A stretch of DNA of 64,000 nucleotides. It comes from an uncultured Candidatus Saccharibacteria bacterium. GTDB lineage: Bacteria > Patescibacteriota > UBA1384 > DTJR01. A program made the position numbers and the translations under genes. Every line of letters starts with the position of its first letter. Within the stretch, counting starts at the first letter, position 1. Of this stretch, positions 1 through 63,319 are shown piece after piece. The notes beneath the pieces are model-generated. The model saw only the letters and a list, made by a program, of their open reading frames with translations. It was not told the origin of the DNA and searched no databases. The stretch lies in contig CAZAOT010000002.1 of the NCBI GenBank assembly GCA_964487045.1, positions 53,305 to 117,304 of the forward strand. Reading direction: 5' to 3'.

Positions 1-564
1 TTCGAATTCGGACAGGGCTATGTTGCTCTTTCCAGAGTAAGAAGGCTCTCTGGCATATATATAATCGGCTGGAACGATGTAGCGTTTCAGGTGGATCCTG
101 AGGTGTTAGAAATGGACAAAGAGTTTCGTCTAGAATCCGAGCAAGCACAAATCGGATATGATCGCTTCTCAGCTGAAGATATTGATAAGATGCAAAAAAG
201 TTTTATCAAATATTGCGGTGGAAGTTTGGAGGTTGTAGATTTTGCACCAATAATTCACGAAAAAATTTCCACTCTAGATCAAACACTTAAACTCTGGAAG
301 GAAGGCCATCCGATAAATGAAATTGCCAAAAAGCGAGAAATTTCGGAAAAGACAGTGCTCGAACATATCGAGAAATTAGTCGAAACACATAAAATTCAAA
401 AAGAAGAATTATTTGGCGCCTTATCACCTGAGGCTCTCGAATCACTTAGTACTATCCACAAGGCCTTCCGATCCTTGAACACTACTAAACTTACTCCTAT
501 ATACGAAAAGCTCTCTGGCAAATTTTCCTACGACGACCTGAAAATCGCCCGAATGATGATGTGA
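1..564 (+). CDS. 3' fragment of a Pif1/RecD-family (SF1B) helicase with a C-terminal HTH-type tail; 5' end is outside the window
   Basis: Frame 1 is open from nt 1 (FEFGQGYVALSRVRRLSGIYIIGWN...). The YVALSRVR motif resembles helicase motif VI of Pif1-like helicases. It is followed by a ~100-aa helix-turn-helix-like tail (INEIAKKREISEKTVLEHIEKL). Stop at 562-564. Confidence 0.5.
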   Translation, partial: FEFGQGYVALSRVRRLSGIYIIGWNDVAFQVDPEVLEMDKEFRLESEQAQIGYDRFSAEDIDKMQKSFIKYCGGSLEVVDFAPIIHEKISTLDQTLKLWKEGHPINEIAKKREISEKTVLEHIEKLVETHKIQKEELFGALSPEALESLSTIHKAFRSLNTTKLTPIYEKLSGKFSYDDLKIARMMM

Positions 565-616
565 GATTTTCTATCGAGTATCGACAGCAAAATCAATATT
601 TAGTAGTTAGTAGCCA

Positions 617-844
617 GGCGAAAAGTGCGAGCACTTAAGCCTATTAATAATAGATAGCTCTCTGAAGTTGAAAGCTGGAACTGATTATCTTGGCAAACTT
701 GCCCAAGAATGAATTCCAGAAGGTTCAACAATGAGAGCTTCACCAAGGGCGTTGCGGGGGTAAGGAAATCGTTAAAAACCTAGGGGACACACCGAAAGTG
801 TCCTCTGGGTTGTTAACATCTATGCGAGCTTATAGCTCGCCAAT
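617..844. repeat. Copy A of a ~228-bp conserved element (candidate structured ncRNA / accessory-segment boundary repeat)
   Basis: Near-identical to 20487-20712 (about 20 substitutions over 228 bp, same orientation). Contains predicted helices AGCTCTC(656-662)/GAGAGCT(733-739), GTTGAA(667-672)/TTCAAC(724-729), hairpin CTTGG(689-693)/CCAAG(703-707), hairpin GGGGACAC(783-790)/GTGTCCTC(798-805) and terminal hairpin GCGAGCT(824-830)/AGCTCGC(834-840). Confidence 0.6.
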
Positions 845-937
845 AGATATTCAAATCTATACTTTGTGTTAGGTTTGTGCTATTGTAATTACGCCCTTTG
901 GCGCCAAAACGCCTTTTTTATTTTAAAAGGATTATGC

Positions 938-2389
938 ATGCAAGAAGAAGTATTTTTACGATTCAATGAAGTTAGCTTCGAATATCAACCTAATAAGCCC
1001 ATATTGGATGAGGCCTCATTCTCAGTGAGAAAGAATTCAAAGATTACTCTTATGGGTCAGAACGGAGCAGGTAAGAGTTCAATCTTCTCGCTTATCACCG
1101 GAGAGCTAAAGCCAAAGTCCGGACTAATTTCTATTAATGAGCAGGCGAGTATTGCAATTGGACGACAAGTCATGGCCAGAGAAGATCTACCTCTCACGAT
1201 CAAAGCATATTTTTCAAAAGCATTTAAGGATGTACCTTTTGAAATTGATAAGAGAATTGAGAAAGTCCTGGATGTCGTCAATTTAAAAATATCATCTGAT
1301 AAAATCGTCGGTGAGCTTTCTGGAGGACAGCAAGCTAGACTGCTTCTTGCTTTTGCCTTAATTCAAGAACCAGATATTTTACTTCTTGACGAGCCAACCA
1401 ACAATCTCGATCAGGCCGGTATAGATCATCTAATTACTTTCTTAGTCATGTATGAAAAAACAGTGATTGTAATTTCTCATGATGCAGACTTTCTAAATTG
1501 CTTTACTGAGGGAGTTGTTTATCTCGATAATTTCACTAAGAAGACCGAACAATACGTAGGTGACTATGAATCGGTAGTCAAGGAAATTTCAGAAAGAATC
1601 GAACGCGAAAGACGAAAAAACGCTCAGCTTAAAAAATCTATAATCGATCGCAAAGAGAAGGTTAACTTCTTTGCCCATAAGGGTGGAAAGATGAGAAGAC
1701 TTGCGCGCAAGCTCAAGGAAGAAACAGCTGACCTAGAAGAGAATATGGTATCGGTCAGAAAAGAAGATCGTGCAATTAGAGACTTTGAAATTCCCGCTCA
1801 AGAAATAGTTGGAAAAATTGTCGAAATTAGCGCAGTGAATAAAATCGAAAATCATGAACCAATAGTAAAAGAAGTTAATTTTACATTAAGACAGGGAATG
1901 CACTTACTAGTAACTGGACCAAATGGAATCGGAAAAAGTACACTACTTAGATCTCTTGCTAGTGGCAGAAATCCAAACGCCAAAATTATGGACGGAGTGA
2001 AGGTTGGCTACTACAGCCAAGATTTTTCGAATTTAAATTTTGACCAGACCGTAATGGAATCACTAGAAGAAATTAAGACTGATGGGATCGATGAGCAGAT
2101 GATGCGATCGATTGCAGCCGGTTTTCATGTGACAGGGGACTTGATGAGTCGAAAAATCTCAGAGCTTTCTGAAGGACAGAAAGGACTATTGTCATTTGCC
2201 AGACTAGTTTTGATGGAGCCGGGACTTTTAATCCTCGATGAGCCAACCAACCACATTAATTTTCGCCATCTACCTGTTATTGCCGAAGCGGTTAATGAAT
2301 ATGAAGGGGCGATGATTGTCGTTAGCCATATGAAAGAGTTTTTAGAGCAGATTAAATTTGATGAAGAATTGGATATTGGGAGAATATAA
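938..2389 (+). CDS. ABC-F family ATPase (two tandem ABC nucleotide-binding domains, no transmembrane domain)
   Basis: Two Walker A motifs (GQNGAGKSS, GPNGIGKST), two ABC signatures (LSGGQQARL, LSEGQKGLL) and two Walker B motifs (ILLLDEPTN, LLILDEPTN). Likely start is the ATG at 938 after AAAAGGA; the 866 start in the track is probably an upstream extension. Confidence 0.85.
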   Translation: MQEEVFLRFNEVSFEYQPNKPILDEASFSVRKNSKITLMGQNGAGKSSIFSLITGELKPKSGLISINEQASIAIGRQVMAREDLPLTIKAYFSKAFKDVPFEIDKRIEKVLDVVNLKISSDKIVGELSGGQQARLLLAFALIQEPDILLLDEPTNNLDQAGIDHLITFLVMYEKTVIVISHDADFLNCFTEGVVYLDNFTKKTEQYVGDYESVVKEISERIERERRKNAQLKKSIIDRKEKVNFFAHKGGKMRRLARKLKEETADLEENMVSVRKEDRAIRDFEIPAQEIVGKIVEISAVNKIENHEPIVKEVNFTLRQGMHLLVTGPNGIGKSTLLRSLASGRNPNAKIMDGVKVGYYSQDFSNLNFDQTVMESLEEIKTDGIDEQMMRSIAAGFHVTGDLMSRKISELSEGQKGLLSFARLVLMEPGLLILDEPTNHINFRHLPVIAEAVNEYEGAMIVVSHMKEFLEQIKFDEELDIGRI

Positions 2390-2827
2390 CTAGATCTGGG
2401 TAACTTTTATATTATTCACAGACAGAAGGGCTGCAAAAACACCGTAACCATTTATCTTATTACCCGTGAATGTACCGTCATAAATGCTACCAGCGCCGCA
2501 AGATGGACTACCTGATTTCAAAACAACTTCTTCAGCGCCAAATTCCTTTACTATTTCAAGAGCTTTTTCAGCACCGGCTAGATATTCCTTAGTTACATCT
2601 TTACCATTTGAATCTATTATCTTTGCTTTGCCATTTATCACATCAAATCCATCTCCTCCCACTATTTCACATGCTGGTCTTGGTACGCCTAAATTTGCTA
2701 GTAGCTCAGGACACAACAGGATTGCCTCGCTACCTTCAAATGACTTTCTGGCTTCTTCCGAAAGCTTGCCTTTACCGTCATACCTGCAATTTACTCCTAA
2801 TAAACATGCGCTTATAACTTTTTTCAT
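2390..2827 (-). CDS. DUF523-family protein (TudS-like, 2-thiouracil desulfidase family)
   Basis: N-terminal VISACLLGxNCRYDG... and LCPE...GVPRP plus SGSPSCG motifs, characteristic of the DUF523 family. Confidence 0.65.
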   Translation of the reverse strand: MKKVISACLLGVNCRYDGKGKLSEEARKSFEGSEAILLCPELLANLGVPRPACEIVGGDGFDVINGKAKIIDSNGKDVTKEYLAGAEKALEIVKEFGAEEVVLKSGSPSCGAGSIYDGTFTGNKINGYGVFAALLSVNNIKVTQI

Positions 2828-3032
2828 ACTTGTATTTTAGTTTAATTTCAAAAATGAACAAGGGCCCTCGTTTCCGAGGGCCCCGTTTGGCTGAGCGATT
2901 ACGACCGCGCATTACTGCTTGGTCGCGGCCGCCAGAGAAAAGCAATATTCCCCGGCCGTCAAAGTTGTGGTTCGTTGCGACGTCAATTCGCTCACGAACA
3001 AGTTCCACCGCCCTGTCTGCCAAATCGCGCAT
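2778..3032 (-). pseudogene. GC-rich remnant resembling the N-terminus of a PP-loop (SGGxD) ATPase, truncated by a hairpin
   Basis: AAAGGAG Shine-Dalgarno 5 nt upstream of the ATG at 3032. Encodes MRDLADRAVELVRERIDVATNHNFDGRGILLFSGGRDQ..., then runs through the perfect hairpin GGGCCCTCG-TTTC-CGAGGGCCC (2862-2883) into the tudS start. Local GC is far above the flanks. Confidence 0.25.
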
Positions 3033-3328
3033 GATGGCTCCTTTCGCTCCTCAATCGATGATGTAACAGCTGATTGTCAATGATCAATCAAGACAATTTA
3101 GCACTATAGTAAATCGCAGTCAATACTTAAATAGAAATATTTGAGAGCACTAATCATTCAGGACCTTGCCTCTCGGTATACGACGATGCTCGCTCCTGTT
3201 GAATTATTGAAATTATACAACATTCTTATAAATTATCAACACTAAAACCTGAGGTTTTTTCTCAGCTTGCATATAATAGTAATTGTCATTATGATTTAAC
3301 TGCCGCTAAAATATTTAAAGGAAAAATT

Positions 3329-3763
3329 ATGAAAAAAGTTGTTGAGAAAATTGCGAAGGAATTAGAAGGAAAAGTTAGCGAGAAGAAAGGAATTATCAGT
3401 GTTGAGGCAACCATCGCTGAGAGAAAAGCATTTCTATCAAAAAAGAAATTGACCTATTCATTCCAAGCAAAGATAAACGATGAAGATAAGTCGGTATTGT
3501 TTTCTGAAATGCTTAAGGAAGCCGGTTCTGGATTTAGCTCTGGTGGGGGATTTGATGGCGAAATGTCGACTGGGTTTGGATTCAAAAAAGAATCATACAA
3601 TACGATGAGTGGATCAAGAGAAGGCTCAATCGAAGAAAGCTCAAAACTTTTCGGCAAAGATTATCAGTATAAATTCGACTATTCCAAAGTACGAAAAGAA
3701 ATAGAATCAGCCGCAAAAGAAAAGGGATATAAGTTCGAGTATCAGATTCTCCCAATTAGATAA
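3329..3763 (+). CDS. Hypothetical cytoplasmic protein (K/E-rich, Gly-rich middle)
   Basis: Clean ORF with upstream AGGAAAA RBS, followed by a strong bidirectional terminator. No recognisable motif. Confidence 0.5.
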   Translation: MKKVVEKIAKELEGKVSEKKGIISVEATIAERKAFLSKKKLTYSFQAKINDEDKSVLFSEMLKEAGSGFSSGGGFDGEMSTGFGFKKESYNTMSGSREGSIEESSKLFGKDYQYKFDYSKVRKEIESAAKEKGYKFEYQILPIR

Positions 3764-3765
3764 TT

Positions 3766-3807
3766 AAAAAAATCCCTCGCTGATAATTATGACGAGGGAT
3801 TTTTTTG
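3766..3807. terminator. Bidirectional intrinsic terminator
   Basis: ATCCCTCG(3772-3779)/CGAGGGAT(3793-3800) stem flanked by an A-run and a T-run, between convergent genes. Confidence 0.7.
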
Positions 3808-3813
3808 TTTTGA

Positions 3814-4698
3814 TTATTCGCTTATCTTGAGATCTATTGTTTTGACTATTTTTCCTTCTTTTTCAGCGCGATCATGATTGATCGAGTAGCTTTTAGTTCC
3901 GTTGTCCATATCTTCGCTTTCCATAAAGGGGAGCCCATCTACTACTTCGAACACATTGTCGGTAAATATCTGCTGATATCTCCCCTCAGAAAAATTTGTA
4001 TCTATTGTGTAATGCCAGTAGAAATTGCTTGTTGGTCCATCTGGCGTGCCTTGCGGTCGATAGAAGGTAGCTAGAGCTTGCGATTCGGTATAAGGCGCAG
4101 GTAGTGAGCCAGCGTTGGCATAGACTGGGCTCAAGGCTCCGTAATCATTGTATCCTCGCGAAGTATCTGATGGCTTATGCATTCTAATTATGTAGTTATA
4201 TAGAGGACTACCATAGAAGCTTGTATCAGGGTTTTGCGCCAGATCGGACGAAAATGTCGCCACATAGTAGGCCTTCAGCCTGCAGTTTGTAGCATCTATT
4301 TTAATTGCTACCTGCCCAACAAGACCTTCTCCGGAAATTTTTAATAGCTTATTATCGTACTTAGCGATATATGGCTTACACTCTTCGACAGTTAGTTTTT
4401 TACCTTGTGACGAGCCAGATGATTTTCCGCTAGAAGCTCCTCCTACAAACATAAATATAATAGTAATTAAAATTAATACACTGAAGCTTATCCACATAAT
4501 AATCTGAGTGATCTTGAATAGTACTATTATTTTTGCAAAAAATATCAAATAGAAAACGATCCAAATAATTAGCAAAATCCAGAACCACAGTGTGAAACCG
4601 ATAAAAATTAATAGCATAATCAAGCTTATTAGCGCCAAGGCTAGCATTATAAGCATCGCGAACTTACTATCTTTCTTTACTCTTTCAATAAAATTCAT
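3814..4698 (-). CDS. Membrane protein: 3-4 N-terminal transmembrane helices and a C-terminal extracytoplasmic domain
   Basis: Hydrophobic N-terminal 90 aa (LIMLLIFIGFTLWFWILLIIWIVFYLIFFAKIIVLF...), then a Ser/Gly linker and a ~190-aa globular region. Confidence 0.55.
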   Translation of the reverse strand: MNFIERVKKDSKFAMLIMLALALISLIMLLIFIGFTLWFWILLIIWIVFYLIFFAKIIVLFKITQIIMWISFSVLILITIIFMFVGGASSGKSSGSSQGKKLTVEECKPYIAKYDNKLLKISGEGLVGQVAIKIDATNCRLKAYYVATFSSDLAQNPDTSFYGSPLYNYIIRMHKPSDTSRGYNDYGALSPVYANAGSLPAPYTESQALATFYRPQGTPDGPTSNFYWHYTIDTNFSEGRYQQIFTDNVFEVVDGLPFMESEDMDNGTKSYSINHDRAEKEGKIVKTIDLKISE

Positions 4699-4914
4699 AT
4701 CTCTCCCACTCCGTGAATTTCGCTCCTCGACGGAAGAAATTCCGGAAGTCCCGTATCAAGTCCCGATGCGTAACGCGGATGAATAATCCGACGTGAAGCT
4801 TTCGAGAGTTGAGACTGGGATAATTATTTAATTACATAAAATATCTCAAATTTTAACATTATTTCAATGTTTTAATGGTTGAACAAAGATCATATCTAGC
4901 GTAATATTTCTATC

Positions 4915-5478
4915 ATGAGAAAAACTTATCTTAATAAAAAGATTCTATATTACACTGCAGGAATTATATTGATAGTAATCATTACTTATTTAACGCCGGA
5001 CAGTGCACTCAAAGTACTGCTTCAATCAAATTTTACCTACAAGAATGATCGCTATGAGAATAAAAATTTTGAGCTAATAATCGATAAGTTAAACATCAAA
5101 TCACCTGTGATTTTAGATGTTGACCCGGTGAACAAGGACGTTTATAACCAAGAGCTTACTAAAGGAGTCGCCCATATGAAAGGAACTGCGATGCCGGGTG
5201 ATAAGGGGAATGTATTTATCTATGGACATTCTTCGTCAGATATTAAAAGCCCTTATGATAAAATATTCTCTAACTTAAACAATTTAAACAACGACGATAA
5301 AATTATAATTAACTATAAAAATAGTGTATATACGTATCGAGTTATTGAAAAAAAAATCGTTGAGAAAACAGACCTAAGTGTTATTGAGCAAAAAAATAAT
5401 TCACTTTTGACTTTGATGACTTGCTGGCCACTGGGGACAACCGAGAAACGCTTGATAATAATTGCTGAACAAAGCTAG
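4915..5478 (+). CDS. Sortase family transpeptidase
   Basis: N-terminal transmembrane anchor, conserved His in a YGHS context, and the catalytic TLMTCWP (TLxTC) motif. Confidence 0.75.
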   Translation: MRKTYLNKKILYYTAGIILIVIITYLTPDSALKVLLQSNFTYKNDRYENKNFELIIDKLNIKSPVILDVDPVNKDVYNQELTKGVAHMKGTAMPGDKGNVFIYGHSSSDIKSPYDKIFSNLNNLNNDDKIIINYKNSVYTYRVIEKKIVEKTDLSVIEQKNNSLLTLMTCWPLGTTEKRLIIIAEQS

Positions 5479-5616
5479 AAAAGAGTTGGGGAAACCCGCT
5501 TATTTTTGATAATTATGACTTGAAATTAGTAGCATAAGCTTATGTTTATTTTAATCTAGATATATCTGTAATAACAATTAAAAATTGATTGAAAGTAAAA
5601 ATATTTAGGGGAGAAA

Positions 5617-5970
5617 ATGAAACTAAACGATATCTACAAATGTGAGGTGTGCGGCAATGTGGTTGAACTGACATTCGTCGGTGGCGGGGAATTAGTTTGC
5701 TGCGGCAAACCAATGATTCAACAAGCGCCAAAGTCTGAGGATCAAGGCACCGAAAAGCATAAACCTGTCATAAATGACGAGGATGTTGAAGTGGGATCCG
5801 TTCCTCATCCCATGGAAGAAGAGCATTTTATTACCTGGATTGAATCAGTCGATGGAGAGGATGTGTATCGAGTGAACCTGAAACCAGGCGATGATCCAAA
5901 AGCCAAATTCGGCTCTGCGGTCAAAGAAGCTCGAGCTTACTGCAACGTCCACGGTCTCTGGAAGAGTTGA
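5617..5970 (+). CDS. dfx: Desulfoferrodoxin / superoxide reductase (2Fe-SOR)
   Basis: N-terminal desulforedoxin-like CxxCG...CCG motif. C-terminal SOR domain with HPMEEEHFITWIE and YCNVHGLW (Cys-His iron ligands). Confidence 0.85.
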   Translation: MKLNDIYKCEVCGNVVELTFVGGGELVCCGKPMIQQAPKSEDQGTEKHKPVINDEDVEVGSVPHPMEEEHFITWIESVDGEDVYRVNLKPGDDPKAKFGSAVKEARAYCNVHGLWKS

Positions 5971-5993
5971 ATCAAGTTCAGCTAGAGCTGATT

Positions 5994-6584
5994 TTACTTT
6001 ACGAGATCATCTATATATTTTTTTATAAATCTTCTAGCTGGAGAAGTAAGTTTGTATTTAAGTGCTGCTTCCAATTCCACCCATTCGAAGCAAGATGATT
6101 CATCATTTATTGTTATTTTATCCAATTCTTTTACATGGAATTCATAAATATGCCATTTGTGGTGGTCGGCACCCCGACGACATGGATCATCGTCAAGATC
6201 GTATTCCATGATATTCTTCATCTTTTCGGGCCTTATGCCGACTTCCTCCAACACTTCTCTTGTTGCCGAATCTTCAGGCATTTCACTTGAGTTCACGTGA
6301 CCAGCAGGTATGGAATAGCCAAAGGGAAATTTGCTTAATTTTATTAAAAGAAGTTGGTTATTATCATTGAATATAAATGCTCCTACACTTTCATGCCAAT
6401 AATTATTTTCTTTGTCAAACCAATACTTAATTTTTTTATCAATTATTATTGAACGCTCAGATTTTGCTTTACAGCCAGAGCAGAAAAAATTACCATCTTT
6501 CTGTTTTTGAATATTATTACTGTAGCACTTAGGGCAAAACTCTCCCTTATCAACTCGTTGAATACTTTTATTAGTTATTTTCAT
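5994..6584 (-). CDS. NUDIX hydrolase with N-terminal zinc-ribbon
   Basis: CPKC...CSGC zinc ribbon, then the Nudix box GHVNSSEMPEDSATREVLEEVGI (GX5EX7REVXEEXGU). Confidence 0.8.
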   Translation of the reverse strand: MKITNKSIQRVDKGEFCPKCYSNNIQKQKDGNFFCSGCKAKSERSIIIDKKIKYWFDKENNYWHESVGAFIFNDNNQLLLIKLSKFPFGYSIPAGHVNSSEMPEDSATREVLEEVGIRPEKMKNIMEYDLDDDPCRRGADHHKWHIYEFHVKELDKITINDESSCFEWVELEAALKYKLTSPARRFIKKYIDDLVK

Positions 6585-8037: not shown

Positions 8038-9168
8038 TCAGTATGATGTGGTTATAGCTTTATGCGGACAAGTCCCCACACATGCGTTGCATCCTACGCA
8101 TTTTGCTGAATCTATCGTCGGCTTAAGGTCAGCGAATGTCATCGCTGAGAACCCACACACGTGGACGCATTTTGCACACATCCTGCACTTGTCCAAGTTG
8201 ACTATAGGCGTAGTGGGGTTGAACCTGCTTTCACAGTCAGACCACCTTTGAGATACACCGATCAACGAACGTATGTCTGGATACTGTGAATTTGACTCAA
8301 GAAACCTTAGTATTTCACAAGAGATTCTCTTGAAGACTCCAGGACCCTCAAGGGCTGGCGCGGTATAAAGTTGTACAGCACTAGCGCCAGCCATGATCAT
8401 CTGGATAACACGTTCGCCCGTGTTGACTCCACCTGATCCTACCACTGGAATTGCTAGCGCACTAGAGAGTGTGTATACACACCACAGGGCAATCGGAAAG
8501 ACCGCGTCACCTGTCACGCCACCAGCACCGCCCTTAACCCCTAAGGTCGGCTTAGTGGTGTTGATATCTAGAAAGAGACCAGGACCGATTGAGTTGGTTG
8601 TCACGACACAATCGGCTCCCTCTCTCTCTGCCTCTAAAGCCATTTCCGTGATGAGAGGCGAGTATGATAGCTTCACCCAAACAGGAAGATCAATGGCGGA
8701 TCGAAGTGTCCCCACAGTCCGCCTCAGATGCTCATAGTTGATGTTCAGATTGCCATGCAATGCACCAGAGTGCGCGCATGAAACATTGACCTCGAAAGCA
8801 TCAACGTGACCTGTTCGCGCAAATTGACGAGCAAGCCGGACGCAGCCTTCGATGTCACGTGCGCTTAGAGAAACGATTAGCGCTCCATGTTTCTTAGCGG
8901 CAATAGTGTACTCGTTAAGCCAGGTCTGCCACGATGTCTGGTTGCTCCACTCGCAGTTCAGCATCGATCCATTGCCAAAGACGTGGTAACGCGGACTCGG
9001 TATATTCCTGCGTTCCTCAGGTACTGTCTCGCGCAAAGATCTCGTGACCATCCCGCTGCACCCCTCTGACACACTCCTTACAAAGAAATCCGGAGATTCA
9101 GTGATATGGCCCGAGGCCAAAAGCAGCGGAGTCGATAGCTCAACACTGCCGACACTTGCACTAATCAT
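8038..9168 (-). CDS. Dihydroorotate/dihydropyrimidine dehydrogenase-family flavoprotein fused to a C-terminal 2x[4Fe-4S] ferredoxin domain (PreA-like)
   Basis: DHOD-fold motifs (LLLASGH, TTNSIGPG, VVGSGGV, MAGASAVQ) plus C-terminal CRMCAKCVHVC and CVGCNACVGTCP clusters. High GC. Confidence 0.7.
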   Translation of the reverse strand: MISASVGSVELSTPLLLASGHITESPDFFVRSVSEGCSGMVTRSLRETVPEERRNIPSPRYHVFGNGSMLNCEWSNQTSWQTWLNEYTIAAKKHGALIVSLSARDIEGCVRLARQFARTGHVDAFEVNVSCAHSGALHGNLNINYEHLRRTVGTLRSAIDLPVWVKLSYSPLITEMALEAEREGADCVVTTNSIGPGLFLDINTTKPTLGVKGGAGGVTGDAVFPIALWCVYTLSSALAIPVVGSGGVNTGERVIQMIMAGASAVQLYTAPALEGPGVFKRISCEILRFLESNSQYPDIRSLIGVSQRWSDCESRFNPTTPIVNLDKCRMCAKCVHVCGFSAMTFADLKPTIDSAKCVGCNACVGTCPHKAITTSY

Positions 9169-9721
9169 CTTGCCCAGCTCCTTTCAGTACTTGCTCCATA
9201 CGTCTGAGCATCTCCACAGCTATCATGTTCTCATTTGCCTGACTTACTCGAAATACACACTCAAAAGTCTCTGTGTGGATCCGAGCAATTTCGTCTTCTG
9301 CAGCAGCCAGTCTCTCTCTGATCTCGTCCTCGGTTTCCGTTGCGCGATAGTCGCGCAGCCTTGTCTCGAGAAACTTGATGTCTTCAGGCAGTACAGCAAT
9401 ACGATATATCTCCCAGCTACACGAGGAAGCGCGCGATACGTTACTTACGTGCAACTCCGTCACGTATGACCCGCGCGGGTCGATCTCGCTAACCAACAGA
9501 CCATATCTACTACCGTATAGTTCGTGATCAAAGAGAATGCCACCGCTTTTAAGTATTCGTGCGAACGCTTCATCGTCCATGCAAACTCGGCCAGTTTCGC
9601 CGTCACGAGGGAGTCGAGTTGTGGCCCAACTCAACTCTTTCACATCGGGATAGGCCTCGATCAGTTTCCTTTTCAGGAAACCTTTACCAACCCCAGAAGG
9701 GCCAGTAAATGAGATAATCAT
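9161..9721 (-). CDS. gmk: Guanylate kinase (GC-rich copy)
   Basis: P-loop ISFTGPSGVGKG and the ATTRLPRDGE (TTRxPRxGE) motif; overlaps the upstream gene by 8 nt (operon). Confidence 0.8.
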   Translation of the reverse strand: MIISFTGPSGVGKGFLKRKLIEAYPDVKELSWATTRLPRDGETGRVCMDDEAFARILKSGGILFDHELYGSRYGLLVSEIDPRGSYVTELHVSNVSRASSCSWEIYRIAVLPEDIKFLETRLRDYRATETEDEIRERLAAAEDEIARIHTETFECVFRVSQANENMIAVEMLRRMEQVLKGAGQDD

Positions 9722-11665: not shown

Positions 11666-11694
11666 TTGACAGAATCTAGCTTTTTTGATATTAT
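11666..11694 (+). promoter_or_regulatory. Near-consensus sigma70-type promoter upstream of the NYN gene
   Basis: TTGACA (11666-11671), 17-bp spacer, TATTAT (11689-11694). Followed by hairpin ACCCGCC(11711-11717)/GGCGGGT(11729-11735) plus TTTT in the leader. Confidence 0.45.
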
Positions 11695-36640: not shown

Positions 36641-37094
36641 TGAAATAAAAATCTTCCGATGTTTCGGAAGAAGGTTAGGATTATATCAGAAAATGATAAT
36701 TTGTCAAGCCCCAAGGGCATATTTATAGCTATTTTAGGCAAGTTTGAACCTGTTAAGTAGAAATGCTATAAAATTTGAACCTGTAAATATTGAGAAAAAT
36801 ACAAATTTTGGGGCATAAAAACTATTGACAATTTGCCCATTATATGGTAAGTTTACCCCTTGCTTGATTCGCCCAGCTTGAAAAAAGTATTGAGGGCAGA
36901 ATTCCAGCTGGGAATTGCGGAGAGTTGCTTCAAATTTTTAAATGAAGCAGTGCCCCTCCTTCCCTTTTCCTGGCTGGAATCCTGCCCTTTTATAAAACCC
37001 GAGGATAGCGCTTTAGCGCTACTCGAGTTCTAGGGCAATACGTTCCTTGACATAAGGCAACAACTCGGCGCAACCAGCGCCAAGGAGGAAAGAG

Positions 37095-38480
37095 ATGAGA
37101 AGCACGATTCGCATAGCGACCGTAGTGCTAGTGCTGATGTATCTGGCATGTTCGGCCGCGATGTCGTTCGGGATCCTCGAGGGGTTGGCAATCTTCTCGG
37201 CTCTGGCCGGGAAGGGCGGCAAGCCTGAGCAGGTCACCGTAACCAAGGGTGAGATTTCCATGACGGCTACGCCAGTCATGGCGATCCCGACTGGGTTCGG
37301 TTTCAAGCTCCAGTCAATGACGTTCAACGTAACGGCTGGGACCGGGCTCGCTCCAGACTTCTATCATCCGGTTTTTCCTGTCTTGAAGTGCCTGGCACCC
37401 GATGGCAACCCCATCATGCTGGTACCAATTGACTGGCAACCGAATGGGAAGCCACTCCAGAATCTCCTCGTCACCCTCGACAACGAGCCAATCACGAAGG
37501 CTGTAGATGCTCGTTCACTCGTGGAGAACGAGGGTGCTTGGCTGCGACGAGCGATCCGCGAGGCCAACCGCGACCTTGGACGACAGTATGAAGATTCGAG
37601 CAACGTGCCCGACACCTTCTTCGAACCGTTCATCGCTATGTCAAAAGATGTCAAGCACTCCTTGACGGCTGACAAGCGCCACAACTTCAACAGTCCCACT
37701 GGAAGCGTCAACATGATGCTGGTCTTCCCGATGGGCAACCTCTTCTCGCGCCCGCATTTCGTCGCCTGCAACCTCAAGCAACCCGGCAAGGGAGATAACA
37801 GCTACAACTGCTCTTTCCATTTCCGGGTGCTCGATGAGCCGGTTGAAGTGCCGGCACCCTTCGAGTCGATCGTGCCCATGAACATTGACGGAAAGCTCTC
37901 GCAGCAGCAGATCACTCAGCCTGCACAGCAGGCTTCTGCACCGTCAGCTCAGGTAGCGGGCACCGCGGATAATCGCACTCTCGGAAGCGCGCCCCAACCT
38001 CAGCAACCGCAGTATCAGGCTCCGGCGCCCCAGCAGCAGGCCCCTCAGTACCAGCCGCCTGCCCAGCAATCACAGCCGAGTATTGCGACACCGCCAACGA
38101 TCGACAAGGCTGCGCAGTTCATCCTGCGCCCCGGCGATCAAGCATGGTGGAAGCCGTGCTCATGGGAGCGTCCGAGCAATTGGACGCCGGGTGATCATTG
38201 CTCGGTGGTCCTGTTCTTTCTGGACAGGAGGTACAACCTCCTGCACAGCGGGAACCTCGATGAACGGGACGTGGAGTGGTGGATCAACGGCGATCGGCAG
38301 GACATGAACTTGCCGTCGCATAACTCGATCACCTTTCCCGATCACACCCCGTCGTGCGGTGTGATCTATCAGCGCATGCCGTCAAACAGCGACATTACGT
38401 TGCTGTTCCGCGGCAAGCGCTACGGCTTCAGCACGACTCAGGCGAATATACTCTGGCGACCGATCATGGTCGCCGAGTAA
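37095..38480 (+). CDS. Secreted hypothetical protein with Pro/Gln-rich repeat (high-GC island)
   Basis: Signal peptide; low-complexity PQPQQPQYQAPAPQQQAPQYQPPAQQ block; GC about 60%; SD AAGGAGG. Confidence 0.6.
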   Translation: MRSTIRIATVVLVLMYLACSAAMSFGILEGLAIFSALAGKGGKPEQVTVTKGEISMTATPVMAIPTGFGFKLQSMTFNVTAGTGLAPDFYHPVFPVLKCLAPDGNPIMLVPIDWQPNGKPLQNLLVTLDNEPITKAVDARSLVENEGAWLRRAIREANRDLGRQYEDSSNVPDTFFEPFIAMSKDVKHSLTADKRHNFNSPTGSVNMMLVFPMGNLFSRPHFVACNLKQPGKGDNSYNCSFHFRVLDEPVEVPAPFESIVPMNIDGKLSQQQITQPAQQASAPSAQVAGTADNRTLGSAPQPQQPQYQAPAPQQQAPQYQPPAQQSQPSIATPPTIDKAAQFILRPGDQAWWKPCSWERPSNWTPGDHCSVVLFFLDRRYNLLHSGNLDERDVEWWINGDRQDMNLPSHNSITFPDHTPSCGVIYQRMPSNSDITLLFRGKRYGFSTTQANILWRPIMVAE

Positions 38481-38511
38481 TCCGGCGAAAGCCAAGGAGG
38501 ATTGAGAGAAA

Positions 38512-39669
38512 ATGAAGACACTGATGCTTGTTGTACTGCTACTCACGGCCTCTCTGGGCTTCGCCCAGAGTGAGCCGAACTCGAGCACGCCGCCTGTGAC
38601 CGAGCAGGTCCAGGCGACCACGACGACTACGACAGCGACGGCTACGGCGACGAGTACAACGCCCGCGCCGACCGCAGTGACCACACAACCGGTAACGGTG
38701 ACATTCGACGTCACCGTCCCGATCAGCACCCCCTTGAAAGGGGGAGTTGCGAGTGGGCTAGTTGTCAACCGGACACGCCCGCTCACGAGAGCGGAGTCTG
38801 AGTTCCTCAAGACCGTTCCGAATGGCAAAGACTCGGACGGACAGAGCTACCGTGACCTGATCGAAGTCGCATTCCGATCCGGCATCGCCCACGCCGAGAC
38901 GGCGCCTAGCTACGGCACCGTCGACAACAATGGTGTCGTATACGACTACTCGTATTACTGCCGGCTCGTTCAGCCGGCGGATGCGAGTAAGCCCGTCACC
39001 GGCAGGGTCGAAGACACCTTACACGGGACCGCGACTGGGACGATCAATGTCCCGGTCATCACCGTCAAGGGCGCAGATGGCGCTCCCGGCAGGCCCGGCG
39101 AGACGGTGTACGTCCAGCCTGCGCCGGCTCCGCAGCCTGTCTGCCAGCAGCAGGCCCCGGCGCAGTACTGCCCGCCCCCGCCTCCGCCCCAGCGCGTGCT
39201 GTTCTACACAGTACCGAAGGACCCGTATGGCTCTCCGGTGGTCGCCCAGAACAATGGGTGCAACCAGCAGAGTGCCTACATCCCACAGTACAACGCGTGG
39301 GATCGGCTTGGGCAGGTGCTTCTTCCGTTCGCACTCAAGCCTGAGCCCAACAATTGGAGCTGGTCCACCGTGATCAGCAATGGGAGTTCGTCCAACTCCA
39401 ACGCCACCAACAACAACTCCAACACCGCCTACGGCGGAGCGGGAGGAGCAGGTGGGCAAGGAGGTAGCTCCTGGTCGAATAGCCAGGGCGGCAACGCCTG
39501 GCAGAATCAGGGCCAGGGGATGATGCAGGGTCAGTGGACCCTGAACGACATCACCAACACACTCAACAATATAAATGATTGGCTGAACGCCAATCAGAAC
39601 ACCCTCAACGGTGGCGATCAGACCACCGGAGTGGGGGTGACAACGAATACCGGGGTCGCCGTGCACTAG
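38512..39669 (+). CDS. Secreted hypothetical protein with poly-Thr linker, Pro/Gln-rich and Gly/Asn/Ser-rich segments, and a C-terminal TLNN..W..NTLNGG.QTT module
   Basis: Signal peptide (LTASLGFAQSEP); SD AAGGAGG; GC about 62%; C-terminal 45 aa homologous to aa 67-103 of the adjacent LPXTG protein. Confidence 0.6.
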   Translation: MKTLMLVVLLLTASLGFAQSEPNSSTPPVTEQVQATTTTTTATATATSTTPAPTAVTTQPVTVTFDVTVPISTPLKGGVASGLVVNRTRPLTRAESEFLKTVPNGKDSDGQSYRDLIEVAFRSGIAHAETAPSYGTVDNNGVVYDYSYYCRLVQPADASKPVTGRVEDTLHGTATGTINVPVITVKGADGAPGRPGETVYVQPAPAPQPVCQQQAPAQYCPPPPPPQRVLFYTVPKDPYGSPVVAQNNGCNQQSAYIPQYNAWDRLGQVLLPFALKPEPNNWSWSTVISNGSSSNSNATNNNSNTAYGGAGGAGGQGGSSWSNSQGGNAWQNQGQGMMQGQWTLNDITNTLNNINDWLNANQNTLNGGDQTTGVGVTTNTGVAVH

Positions 39670-39699
39670 TTGCACATACGACCCCCACGACCTCATCAC

Positions 39700-39733
39700 T
39701 TGGAGCGGCGGGACTAAACTCCCGCCGCTCCAA
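39700..39733. terminator. Perfect 14-bp-stem hairpin at the 3' edge of the high-GC island
   Basis: TTGGAGCGGCGGGA-CTAAAC-TCCCGCCGCTCCAA. Confidence 0.7.
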
Positions 39734-39871
39734 TAGACTTTTCTAAATTTCACACCATTGACTTTTTCTTCAGAATTTGCTTCAATTGACCACAAATAAG
39801 CAATATCCAAGAAGCAGTCAATGCTTTAGAAAAATAATTAGTTCCCCGAGAATGTGGGGGAAGGGAGATAT

Positions 39872-40723
39872 ATGAAAAAAGGATATACAATCCTTTTAGG
39901 AGCAGCTGTTCTGACCCTTGTCGGCGGGACAGTAACGTTTGCAACTTCTGCAGACGAGATTATTAATGGTGTCTTCGCTGAGACCGGGATTGAGCAAAAT
40001 CAAACCCAGTGGCAGTGGCAAGATCAGGAGCAATTTCAGGCTCAGATCCAAGAATCCATTAATAATAACGAGAATACACTCAACAATACGAATGAGTGGA
40101 CAAATACTAATACCAACACTCTAAATGGTGGGAATCAAACCACCAACGTTGGTATAGTAAATAACACCGCTGTCGCAGTAGACAATGGCGGTGGATCTGG
40201 ATCAAGTGATGACAACGGCGGAGCCGCTGCATCAACTGGTGGAGCCGTGTCAGTAGGTAGCGACGAAAATGGAAATAGCGGAGTTGCTGTTTCTGGAAAC
40301 GCTGCTGCTGCAGCTGGTAATGCCGCTGCTACCGGAACAGGTGCCGCACAAAATGGCGGAACAGGTGGTCAGCAAGCAACAACTGGCGTAGGAGTCGCAG
40401 CTGGAGAAAATGCAGCTGCTTCATCTGCTTCACAAACTGGAACAAACAACGGCTCAAGCGCTGCTGCCTCAACTGGCAACAGCTCAGCCGCTGCTTCAAC
40501 CGGATCAAATGGAACTTCAGCTACAACCACTTCAGGTGGACAAAAAGTAGCTCTAGCTCAGCCAGAGCAAAAAGTTGCTCAGGCTGTGAAAAGTTCTGGA
40601 ACCTTGCCAAAGACAGGTATTCCAGCAGCCGTTCCAGCACTAGGCTCGCTTGCAATTGGAGCAATATCTACAGTAGCATTAGCTGCTCGAAGAAAGTTTC
40701 AGTTCATTAAAGAAAACCTATAA
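39872..40723 (+). CDS. LPXTG-anchored surface protein (sortase substrate), Ala/Gly/Ser-rich
   Basis: Signal peptide; C-terminal LPKTG, then hydrophobic stretch and ARRKF tail; GGGAGA RBS. Confidence 0.7.
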   Translation: MKKGYTILLGAAVLTLVGGTVTFATSADEIINGVFAETGIEQNQTQWQWQDQEQFQAQIQESINNNENTLNNTNEWTNTNTNTLNGGNQTTNVGIVNNTAVAVDNGGGSGSSDDNGGAAASTGGAVSVGSDENGNSGVAVSGNAAAAAGNAAATGTGAAQNGGTGGQQATTGVGVAAGENAAASSASQTGTNNGSSAAASTGNSSAAASTGSNGTSATTTSGGQKVALAQPEQKVAQAVKSSGTLPKTGIPAAVPALGSLAIGAISTVALAARRKFQFIKENL

Positions 40724-40892
40724 TTCAGCACTATAAATAGGCAAAAATCCCCAGGTAAAACTGGGGATTTTTGTTTGTATTAAAACCAGACTATCAAATC
40801 ATCAAATTTTAAAATCCAAATTACTAAAAAAAATACCAAATATTAAATTTATAAAACTTTAAAAATCAATCGTTATCAGGTATAATACGGGC

Positions 40893-41861
40893 ATGGAAAA
40901 GCAAGAGCTGGGCAAGCTTCTCAAAATCGAGGATAAGAAAGTCGAAGCCAAAACGATTGAAGAGGAGATGGCGTCGGCTAATTTTTGGTCAGATCAGCAA
41001 GAAGCTACAAAAAAAAGTCAAAGGCTTACTTATCTAAACAATGTAATTGGCAATTTTGACAAAGCTAACGACGAGGAAAGCTTAAAAGGCCTAGAGATAG
41101 AAGCTTTATATACTGGCGAATATGACCATATGGGGGCGATCCTCTCGATTCACGCTGGTGCAGGTGGAACAGAAGCCCAAGATTGGGCCGAGATGCTAGA
41201 GAGAATGTATTTAAGATATTCTGAAAAGAATAATTATAAGGCAGAGATATTAGATCAGTCACTAGGGGAAGAAGCGGGGATTAAATCGGCTGAGCTTAGA
41301 ATCGAAGGTGTAAATGCTTATGGCAACCTTAAAACAGAGTCTGGGGTGCATAGGTTAGTGCGAATAAGCCCATTTGATGCCGATAAAGCTAGACATACTT
41401 CTTTTGCCCTTGTTGAAGTAATTCCAGAATTCGATGAGCTCCAAGACATTCAAATAGAAGACAAGGATTTAAAAATCGACGTTTTCCGAGCTTCCGGACA
41501 TGGCGGTCAATCAGTTAATACTACAGATTCAGCAGTCAGAATCACTCATTTACCAAGCAAGATTGTTGTATCCTGTCAAAATGAACGATCGCAAGTACAA
41601 AATAGAGAAGTGGCAATGAAGGTCTTGAAAATAAAACTAAAAAAATTAGAATTAGACGAACGGAAAAAGAAAGAGCAAGGTCTTCGAGGAGAACATACCT
41701 CTGCCGAGTGGGGCAATCAGATCAGATCATACGTATTGCAGCCATATCAGCAGGTTAAAGATCATCGAACCGACTTCACCAGCTCGAACCCTACGGAAGT
41801 TCTAAATGGTGAACTAAACGGATTTATACAAGCTTATTTAAGAAAGTTAAAAAATAGTTAA
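40893..41861 (+). CDS. prfB: Peptide chain release factor 2, encoded without programmed frameshift
   Basis: SPF tripeptide (RISPFDADKARHTSFALVEV) and GGQ motif (ASGHGGQSVN). No CTTTGAC shift site upstream. TATAAT at 40881-40886 only 6 nt before the ATG. Confidence 0.85.
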   Translation: MEKQELGKLLKIEDKKVEAKTIEEEMASANFWSDQQEATKKSQRLTYLNNVIGNFDKANDEESLKGLEIEALYTGEYDHMGAILSIHAGAGGTEAQDWAEMLERMYLRYSEKNNYKAEILDQSLGEEAGIKSAELRIEGVNAYGNLKTESGVHRLVRISPFDADKARHTSFALVEVIPEFDELQDIQIEDKDLKIDVFRASGHGGQSVNTTDSAVRITHLPSKIVVSCQNERSQVQNREVAMKVLKIKLKKLELDERKKKEQGLRGEHTSAEWGNQIRSYVLQPYQQVKDHRTDFTSSNPTEVLNGELNGFIQAYLRKLKNS

Positions 41862-62938: not shown

Positions 62939-63319
62939 ATGAAAATGGCAGTCTGCATCACAGTGATTCTCGTTTTCTTTTCCCCAGTCGTCGCAGATGA
63001 CTCCGGCCACGACAAGGCAATCGCAGTAGAGATTGTCCTTCTCAAGGGTGTTATGACTCGCGGCGCGAGTAGGAGGAACATCGAGCTAGGCTCCGACACA
63101 AAGGTTCTCGTTAGATTCTCATGGAACAACGAGGGCTACCTCCAAGAACCCACCTATTCTCTCGAGAACAGCGCAGTCGTTGACGTGAGACTTAAGAAGG
63201 TCAGGCTCGCAGAGCGCTGCCAGCTAGACCTTGAGATCACCGCCAAATCTCCCGGCTCGACTAAGCTGAACTTCGCCGCTTGCGAACATCGCACCTTTCT
63301 AGGCTTCACGGTCAGGTGA
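62939..63319 (+). CDS. Small secreted hypothetical protein on a GC-rich insert
   Basis: Signal peptide (MKMAVCITVILVFFSPVVA); GGGAGG RBS 7 nt upstream; GC about 55% versus flanks below 40%; convergent with the dus 3' end and overlapping it. Confidence 0.45.
   Translation: MKMAVCITVILVFFSPVVADDSGHDKAIAVEIVLLKGVMTRGASRRNIELGSDTKVLVRFSWNNEGYLQEPTYSLENSAVVDVRLKKVRLAERCQLDLEITAKSPGSTKLNFAACEHRTFLGFTVR

Follow-up and report, generated by a model that had tools for sequence, protein, structure and literature searches.

In curli (CsgA/CsgB) and in the TasA/TapA system, a minor protein at the cell surface resembles the secreted subunit in sequence and serves as its nucleator or anchor. Cohesin–dockerin pairs are heterotypic: a secreted protein carries a C-terminal docking element, whose binding partner is a module on a sortase-anchored scaffoldin, both being folded domains of known Pfam families. 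Streptococcal Scl1/Scl2 and the BclA proteins of Bacillus and Clostridioides combine a hypervariable globular head, a collagen-like stalk and attachment to the wall or exosporium. In Streptomyces, co-assembly of short secreted chaplins with the chaplin domains of long, sortase-anchored ones has been proposed as the means by which the secreted layer is tethered to the wall (PMC5618241). Here we describe a locus with a comparable layout in a stretch of 64,000 nucleotides (hereafter the window) of contig CAZAOT010000002.1, which derives from an uncultured Candidatus Saccharibacteria bacterium. The window has about 39% GC overall and contains a sharply bounded block of 57–66% GC, from about 36,950 to 39,740, with two genes on the same strand (gene 1 and gene 2), both for predicted secreted proteins. 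Behind the block lies a gene for a predicted LPXTG wall-anchored protein (the anchor), and the C-terminus of the gene 2 product and the start of the mature anchor carry the same short module.

A module shared by a secreted protein and a predicted wall anchor

The gene 2 product is ordered as signal peptide, T-rich linker, head domain (aa ~60–180), Pro-rich/GXY stalk, G/N/Q-rich region and tail module, and the anchor as signal peptide, Q-rich stretch, module, conserved G/A/S/N-rich stalk and LPKTG signal. An earlier note on this stretch, made by inspection alone, had claimed that the two proteins share a module and differ in codon usage. Both observations hold: 32 of 55 residues are identical, the similarity exceeds that of shuffled sequences (z = 13–17), hidden Markov models (HMMs) built from either class of protein recover the other, and the GC content at third codon positions (GC3) is 0.76 in gene 2 versus 0.31 in the anchor gene when whole genes are compared. 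BLASTP aligned aa 330–385 of the gene 2 product with aa 55–110 of the anchor (numbered from a GTG start), with 32 of 56 residues identical, at a composition-adjusted E value of only 0.15; the match of the tail to anchor aa 48–104 (numbered from the ATG) is ungapped. Its Smith–Waterman score of 170 compares with 44–62 ± 8–9 for shuffles, including those confined to the N/T/Q-rich segments (z = 12–16), and none of 2000–5000 shuffles reached it. The 50-aa tails score 149 (z = 16.7), and all seven cognate tail–anchor pairs described below exceed composition-matched shuffles (z = 10–18). An HMM made from four tails of the GC-rich block only detects the native anchor proteins at 34–59 bits and matches nothing else among 250 ORF segments of the window (ORF, open reading frame); the reciprocal HMM, from the anchor class, detects the tails at 34–46 bits, and an alignment of four module sequences has 21 invariant columns. 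The shared module is genuine homology. A similarity limited to low-complexity composition, which the earlier note had named as the outcome that would undo its claim, is contradicted by the shuffles and by the cross-class matches.

At the DNA level, the two module copies in the window are 73.6% identical across 72 nt (blastn), with a third-position identity of 0.40 and the same codon at 16 of the 32 identical residues, which agrees with the view, also put forward earlier, that no recent DNA duplication is involved. Across the genomes, third-position identity between tail and anchor is 0.14–0.48, the same codon is used at 6/33 to 16/32 identical residues, and the longest exact DNA match is 9–17 nt, with identical patches of 13 and 17 nt in the window and L004. 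These third-position identities rule out recent gene conversion or duplication of the module. A variable-repeat/template-repeat pair of a diversity-generating retroelement is likewise ruled out: A is the base of the putative template at only 22–42% of the mismatches, and overall nucleotide identity is ~60%.

Database relatives of gene 2 comprise only P0002, which is 46% identical across the head, and P0003. The contigs of relatives were fetched and genome and metagenome collections were scanned with the neighbouring SLT protein, which yielded six other uncultured low-GC genomes with the same arrangement, seven in total: the window, L001, L004, L007 (= L008–L012, L014), L013, L018 and L030. The gene order is DUF3048, SLT (divergent), gene 1, gene 2, LPXTG gene and RF2, then YbaB/Pth/L1 where the contig extends; the public labels of related metagenome-assembled genomes disagree (Dehalococcoidales, Berkelbacteria, Saccharibacteria, WS2). 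A profile of three modules searched against 1.84 billion representatives added P0004 as a relative and returned only P0001, P0002 and P0004, with the module C-terminal in each. This result covers secreted carriers only, probably because anchored proteins are absent from the collection: the anchors of the window, L001 and L007 are missing from the 15-billion-protein collection, though their genes are called on the contigs. Neither the anchor protein nor the module alignment gave a match in word-indexed protein searches, a null result that, given the same absence, says nothing about anchored carriers. Protein collections may systematically lack surface proteins of strongly low complexity, which would bias any census of modules of this kind.

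In all seven genomes the module forms the C-terminal end of the secreted protein and the start of the mature anchor, and the secreted protein ends where the module of the anchor ends, directly before the conserved GGSGS..DNGGAAAS stalk. The module falls into about four types (window/L001/L007/L013; L004; L018; L030). In every genome the tail matches its own anchor, with Smith–Waterman scores of 109–149, whereas tails score 27–80 against anchors of a different type; with one genome per type, the cognate scores are 149, 122, 146 and 120 and the non-cognate scores 36–80. Tail and anchor of L018 (QWQTQSLWNQSNPVTQVGVSTPVTVNQ versus QWQSQSLHNESNLHTSVNVSTPVNVSQ) and of L004 (NNTNNNANSNSNANANNI versus NNVNNNANSNSNANANNV) illustrate the match. 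In the 7 × 7 table, only 4 of 5040 permutations reach the diagonal sum, all of which merely swap genomes of the same type. Within the first type, an LNNxNxW motif is found in both partners of the window and L001 and in neither partner of L007 and L013. Such co-variation between the partners, genome by genome, points to functional pairing and not merely to old homology.

The anchor has the makings of a credible sortase substrate, as had been claimed: behind a signal-like N-terminus (MKKGYTILLGAAVLTLVGG), the protein ends in LPKTG, a GIPAAVPALGSLAIGAISTVALA-type stretch of 22 hydrophobic residues and ARRKF. It is 68% identical to the L001 ortholog over its full length, and ATG is preferred over GTG as its start (Table 1) because orthologs begin at the equivalent Met. 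The sorting signal is conserved in the six orthologs, as LPKTG but as LPESG in L007 and L013, which may reflect a different sortase specificity or drift; the LPESG anchors lie at 11670–12482 of L007 and at reverse-complement coordinates 4726–5466 of L013, where the gene apparently starts at TTG. Within the window, the anchor is the only ORF found with a sorting signal, and the sortase already reported in the earlier note, a match to Pfam Sortase with a TLMTC motif, is the only one seen.

Exchangeable heads and candidate docking

Both L007 and L013 stem from a single JGI metagenome (Ga0180007). In the flanks they are 89–93% identical, in the tails 81% and in the gene 2 heads 39%, and the N-halves of gene 1 cannot be aligned. 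DNA identity between the two loci is 0.82–0.96 in the flanks, 0.35–0.48 in the N-half and 0.67–0.70 in the C-half of gene 1, and 0.27–0.47 in the head and 0.67–0.73 in the tail of gene 2. The N-half of L013 gene 1 is 57% identical to that of the distant L001, and the gene 2 heads of L004 and L030 are 58% identical over 199 aa where their SLT proteins reach just 53%. The locus is thus a recombination mosaic, with exchanged head domains on a lineage-specific tail that stays with the anchor, and exchange moves head domains among related low-GC lineages at this one locus. Of the exchange of surface proteins that the earlier note had suggested, this much stands; its extension to GC-divergent genomes is not supported, as discussed below. 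No silent donor cassettes were found in the window.

Collagen repeats are present in gene 2 at four of the seven loci (L004, L007, L018 and L030). L030 matches Pfam Collagen (PF01391) at 33.0 bits (cut-off 27.2), and the other three reach 20–24 bits, below the cut-off; gene 2 of the window has no Pfam Collagen match and only a four-triplet GXY remnant, GADGAPGRPGET. Gene 1 has a positional counterpart in 7/7 loci, with pairwise similarity from none up to 64%. The products of gene 1, gene 2 and the anchor gene gave no sequence match in Pfam, NCBIfam, PHROGs or the PDB, and PDB matches of the gene 2 family profile arose solely through the collagen-like and G-rich linker stretches of relatives.

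We propose, with confidence that is about evenly balanced, that the shared segment serves for cognate docking or co-assembly and so tethers an exchangeable fibre to a wall-anchored stalk. The gene 2 product would be secreted and unanchored, with a variable head, a collagen-like or Pro-rich stalk, a G/N/Q-rich spacer and a C-terminal tail, and the anchor would be a sortase-fixed stalk protein that displays the same module just past its signal peptide. The tail would pair homotypically with the anchor module by co-assembly of like sequences, as cross-β structure or a short coiled coil, and the fibre would thereby be held non-covalently by a protein that sortase fixes to peptidoglycan; head domains could then be exchanged by recombination without loss of attachment. 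We infer physical binding, its geometry and surface display from module homology with within-genome matching in four types, the lack of DNA-level conversion, head swapping with tail retention, and the signal peptides and sorting signal.

Several points weigh against this proposal. There are only about four independent module types, and the co-variation rests on few events; it would also be expected if both modules had one third partner in common that differs between lineages. The AlphaFold2 monomer models have low confidence (mean pLDDT 37.8 and 47.2) and suggest no more than a weakly helical first half of the module. The sortase lies 35 kb from the anchor gene and its specificity for this substrate is putative, gene 1 has no assigned role in the docking scheme, and the searched protein collections lack the anchored proteins, so that a wider spread, fused forms included, would go unseen. 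The monomer models and a Foldseek search of the PDB were both uninformative. A coiled-coil heptad reading fits the tails of the window and L001 but not those of L007, L013 and L018, and was not adopted.

We think it unlikely that the two modules instead bind, independently of each other, one third component that differs between lineages (a wall glycopolymer, an S-layer or an enzyme that modifies or processes them, for instance), and that it is this partner that varies. Co-variation cannot separate direct from indirect coupling, and the anchor module adjoins wall-proximal low-complexity stalk sequence. Direct tethering, however, more simply fits a module at the C-terminus of an unanchored and the N-terminus of an anchored protein encoded by adjacent genes, and no candidate partner is conserved in the locus: a PaaX-like gene is confined to the L007 group (L007–L012, L014) and L013.

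A relic of gene fission or duplication, kept similar by occasional conversion and devoid of functional pairing, is a rather improbable explanation. Joined at the module, gene 2 and the anchor would form a typical Scl-like LPXTG fibre protein, as if an ancestor of the order head–stalk–module–LPXTG had split, and the blastn match and short identical patches given above would suit a history of conversion. Third positions are nevertheless near random and GC3 differs by 0.2–0.4 inside the aligned module; any conversion must therefore be older than the complete turnover of synonymous sites, and still the types of tail and anchor correspond at the protein level. At a hypervariable locus, a relic with no function should decay. 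As for an ortholog in which the head is fused to an LPXTG tail, which the earlier note had suggested looking for, none was seen among the fetched loci, and the protein collections, being without anchored proteins, add nothing on this point.

The earlier note had read the GC-rich genes as an island and the module as the mark of a surface-protein family exchanged between GC-divergent genomes. A horizontal origin from a high-GC donor would account for the GC3 of 0.73–0.76 in a genome of about 0.35 and for the sharp boundaries, and an ancient foreign origin could lie behind both. Even so, we judge this reading improbable, and exchange with GC-divergent genomes is not supported. The same two-gene block occupies the same site in seven low-GC genomes whose RF2 proteins are 68–76% identical between lineages (89% for the close pair L007/L013), with GC3 of 0.64–0.79 in genes 1 and 2 and of 0.31–0.38 in the anchor gene throughout. 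Third positions at conserved RF2 residues are 42–51% identical between lineages (0.63 for L007/L013); synonymous sites are therefore saturated between all lineages but that pair, so an ancestral import should have ameliorated. The tail follows the anchor and flanks in vertical descent, yet with GC3 of 0.68–0.87 it is no less GC-rich than the heads that are swapped. No homologue of the GC-rich genes was found in any high-GC genome, phage record (tblastn with genes 1 and 2) or viral contig, there are no tRNA genes and no border or att-like repeats at the block, and no integrase was matched among the neighbouring genes scanned, nor any other mobility gene. With its position kept in all seven genomes, the operon is no recent import. 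A recently acquired genomic island is rejected on the same basis, compositional deviation being its only feature seen at this syntenic site. A phage or mobile origin is likewise rejected, since there is no phage or viral match and PHROG matches arise solely through collagen repeats, and an assembly chimera is ruled out by the same junctions in independent NCBI, ENA, JGI and Logan assemblies of several species. Relatives without the block (L005, L006, L024, L025, L027, L032–L034, L038, L039, L041 and L043) were considered as empty sites and dismissed, as their synteny beside SLT differs (HIT/YqeY/YbeY/FtsA/FtsZ).

Chance resemblance of N/T/Q-rich sequence, which the strong compositional bias of the region and the weak adjusted BLASTP E value might suggest, is refuted and retains a negligible probability, as no within-segment shuffle reaches the score in any of the seven genomes, the cross-class HMMs are specific, four sequences share the invariant columns and each genome shows a type-specific match.

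If the tail docks as proposed, the locus would encode a two-part surface fibre, made up of a stalk that is conserved and covalently anchored and of heads that can be exchanged and are often collagen-like. Its binding specificity could then change fast, toward hosts or surfaces for instance, without attachment having to re-evolve, and the co-varying tail–anchor pair would be a small, testable protein–protein recognition code.

The GC-rich operon and its leader hairpin

Features of the locus are collected in Table 1. Gene 1 and gene 2 both begin with signal peptides and have a common ribosome-binding context, GCCAAGGAGGA. The −35 box and a TGGTA-type −10 box of the operon are conserved in the upstream alignment of the loci that bear the block. 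Between this promoter-like site and gene 1 lies a nearly invariant leader hairpin whose sequence is far better conserved than any of the neighbouring proteins. In an alignment of 11 distinct sequences, 63 of 121 columns are invariant, and 7 of the 34 pairs have compensatory double changes; the hairpin is also found at L001 (1606–1699), L004, L007, L013, L015, L017, L018 and L028–L030. Its covariance model detects one copy per block-bearing locus (119–135 bits) and none in loci without the block. The hairpin matches no Rfam family, with only sub-threshold microRNA-precursor look-alikes (29 bits against a threshold of 53.5). The 3' arm, CCCCUCCUUCCC, looks like the anti-Shine–Dalgarno tail of 16S rRNA, and base pairing between it and the ribosome-binding sites of both genes (AAGGAGGA) would be possible. 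The hairpin could be an attenuator, a small RNA or a translational control element, and it provides a ready marker for locating further such loci.

Table 1. Coordinates of the surface locus and the sortase in the window; promoter-like sites are deduced from sequence.
Feature	Coordinates	Strand	Description
Sortase	4915..5478	+	187 aa, TLMTC; Pfam Sortase 6.4e-29; below NCBIfam cut-offs of every named class
Promoter-like site of GC-rich operon	36825..36853	+	TTGACA, 17 nt, TG-n-TAAGTT
Leader hairpin	36894..36987	+	~94 nt in 5' leader of operon, then T-rich tract; minimum free energy −51.4 kcal/mol, z = −7.3
Gene 1	37095..38480	+	461-aa secreted protein: hypervariable N-half, Q/P-rich linker, C-terminal domain; GC3 0.73
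Gene 2	38512..39669	+	385-aa secreted fibre-like protein; GC3 0.76
Tail module of gene 2	39499..39666	+	aa 330–385, extreme C-terminus
Hairpin, perfect 14 bp, GC-rich	39700..39733	+	followed by T-rich tract; likely terminator of GC-rich operon; right edge of GC-rich domain
Promoter-like site of anchor gene	39758..39786	+	TTGACT, 17 nt, TTCAAT; kept in other loci
Anchor gene	39872..40723	+	283-aa predicted wall-anchored partner; GC3 0.31; ATG 39872 preferred over GTG 39854
Module copy in anchor	40013..40183	+	aa 48–104 counted from ATG
Cell-wall sorting signal	40604..40720	+	LPKTG, hydrophobic segment, ARRKF(QFIKENL)

GC3 of nearly all other window genes is 0.28–0.44. G and C at third positions each make up ~0.36–0.40 in the operon versus ~0.18–0.19 in host genes, and the enrichment reaches the non-coding leader (0.50) and the 3' untranslated region (0.59), with adjacent intergenic DNA at 0.30–0.35; the GC-rich domain therefore equals the transcription unit. 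GC content drops from 0.59 to 0.35 past the terminator-like hairpin, and analogous hairpins are present at the other loci. Given the synonymous saturation and the GC-rich, vertically tracking tail, the bias must be maintained in place, which contradicts the standard expectation of amelioration. GC-biased gene conversion at a recombination hot spot (cf. PMC4450053) could be the cause, as could selection on mRNA or DNA, and the operon offers a natural test case for recombination-driven GC bias versus selection in bacteria. It is a tentative and, on balance, doubtful suggestion that all of this forms one self-contained system: a hypervariable two-gene operon that holds GC3 near 0.7 past synonymous saturation by an active local force, governed by an undescribed leader hairpin and combined with homotypic tail–anchor retention.

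In L007 (7656–8228), with equivalents in L013 and L014, the low-GC PaaX-like gene lies between SLT and the leader hairpin. Its product has a PaaX_M/Cas2-like domain and an N-terminal DNA-binding domain and is a candidate regulator of the operon. The more distant L003 (Logan SRR22388050; 905–1076 and 1135–4165) contains a three-gene block of 55–65% GC in a 38–49% context, preceded by a weak match to the leader-hairpin model (25.8 bits). The block ends in P0003, which has a gene-2-type head and a long collagen region but no tail module, and behind the block come two low-GC CLIPPER-domain proteins, of which the second terminates in LPKTG. The theme of a GC-rich secreted-fibre operon next to a sortase substrate may thus be wider than the seven loci.

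Other compositional anomalies were seen. On the minus strand of the window, 8038–9721 is milder (GC 0.50, GC3 0.49–0.51) and encodes two proteins, one dihydroorotate-dehydrogenase-like with 4Fe-4S domains and the other guanylate-kinase-like. This segment has no relation to the surface locus and may be a separate acquisition. On the plus strand, a 126-aa ORF at 62939–63319 with a signal-peptide-like N-terminus, GC3 of 0.65, local GC of 0.53–0.56 and no Pfam match is another small GC-rich gene, for a probably secreted protein. In L041 (reverse complement of 1–6310), a contig of 39% GC without the block, a 306-aa ORF at 733–1653 with GC3 of 0.62 lies directly beside SLT and may be an unrelated GC-rich insertion in the same neighbourhood. 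The RF2 gene of the window (40858–41861) is a single 322-aa ORF that directly follows a promoter-like site of its own (TTTAAA, 17 nt, TATAAT). With no frame-0 leader visible upstream, the usual programmed +1 frameshift of prfB seems absent in the window and in the related loci.

Comparison with known systems

Curli offer a parallel in composition, as the CsgA/CsgB repeats are N/Q-rich with alternating polar patterns like the module described here. The present proteins differ in having no Pfam Curlin repeat match and a single module instead of five repeats, in relying on predicted sortase anchoring in a monoderm-type envelope, and in the lack of CsgG/E/F-type secretion genes in the locus. Cohesin–dockerin attachment differs in that both partners here carry the same short sequence, and no cohesin or dockerin family was detected with Pfam or NCBIfam. 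The likeness to Scl1/Scl2 and BclA lies in the succession of variable head, stalk and attachment, but in the present locus fibre and LPXTG anchor are encoded as two polypeptides, presumably joined through the shared module.

The chaplins follow a similar plan. As with the short ChpD–H and the long, sortase-anchored ChpA–C of Streptomyces, a module of ~40–55 aa is common to secreted and anchored proteins, a sharing that holds here only by analogy of architecture. The present proteins lack the chaplin domain (PF03777 / DUF320), and neither has a Pfam match at E ≤ 0.1. The module is polar (N/Q/T-rich) and not hydrophobic, any amyloid formation by it is conjectural, and it is the tail of a large multi-domain fibre protein instead of a whole mature peptide, in hosts that are low-GC uncultured bacteria. 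The logic is that of the chaplins, carried out by a different family.

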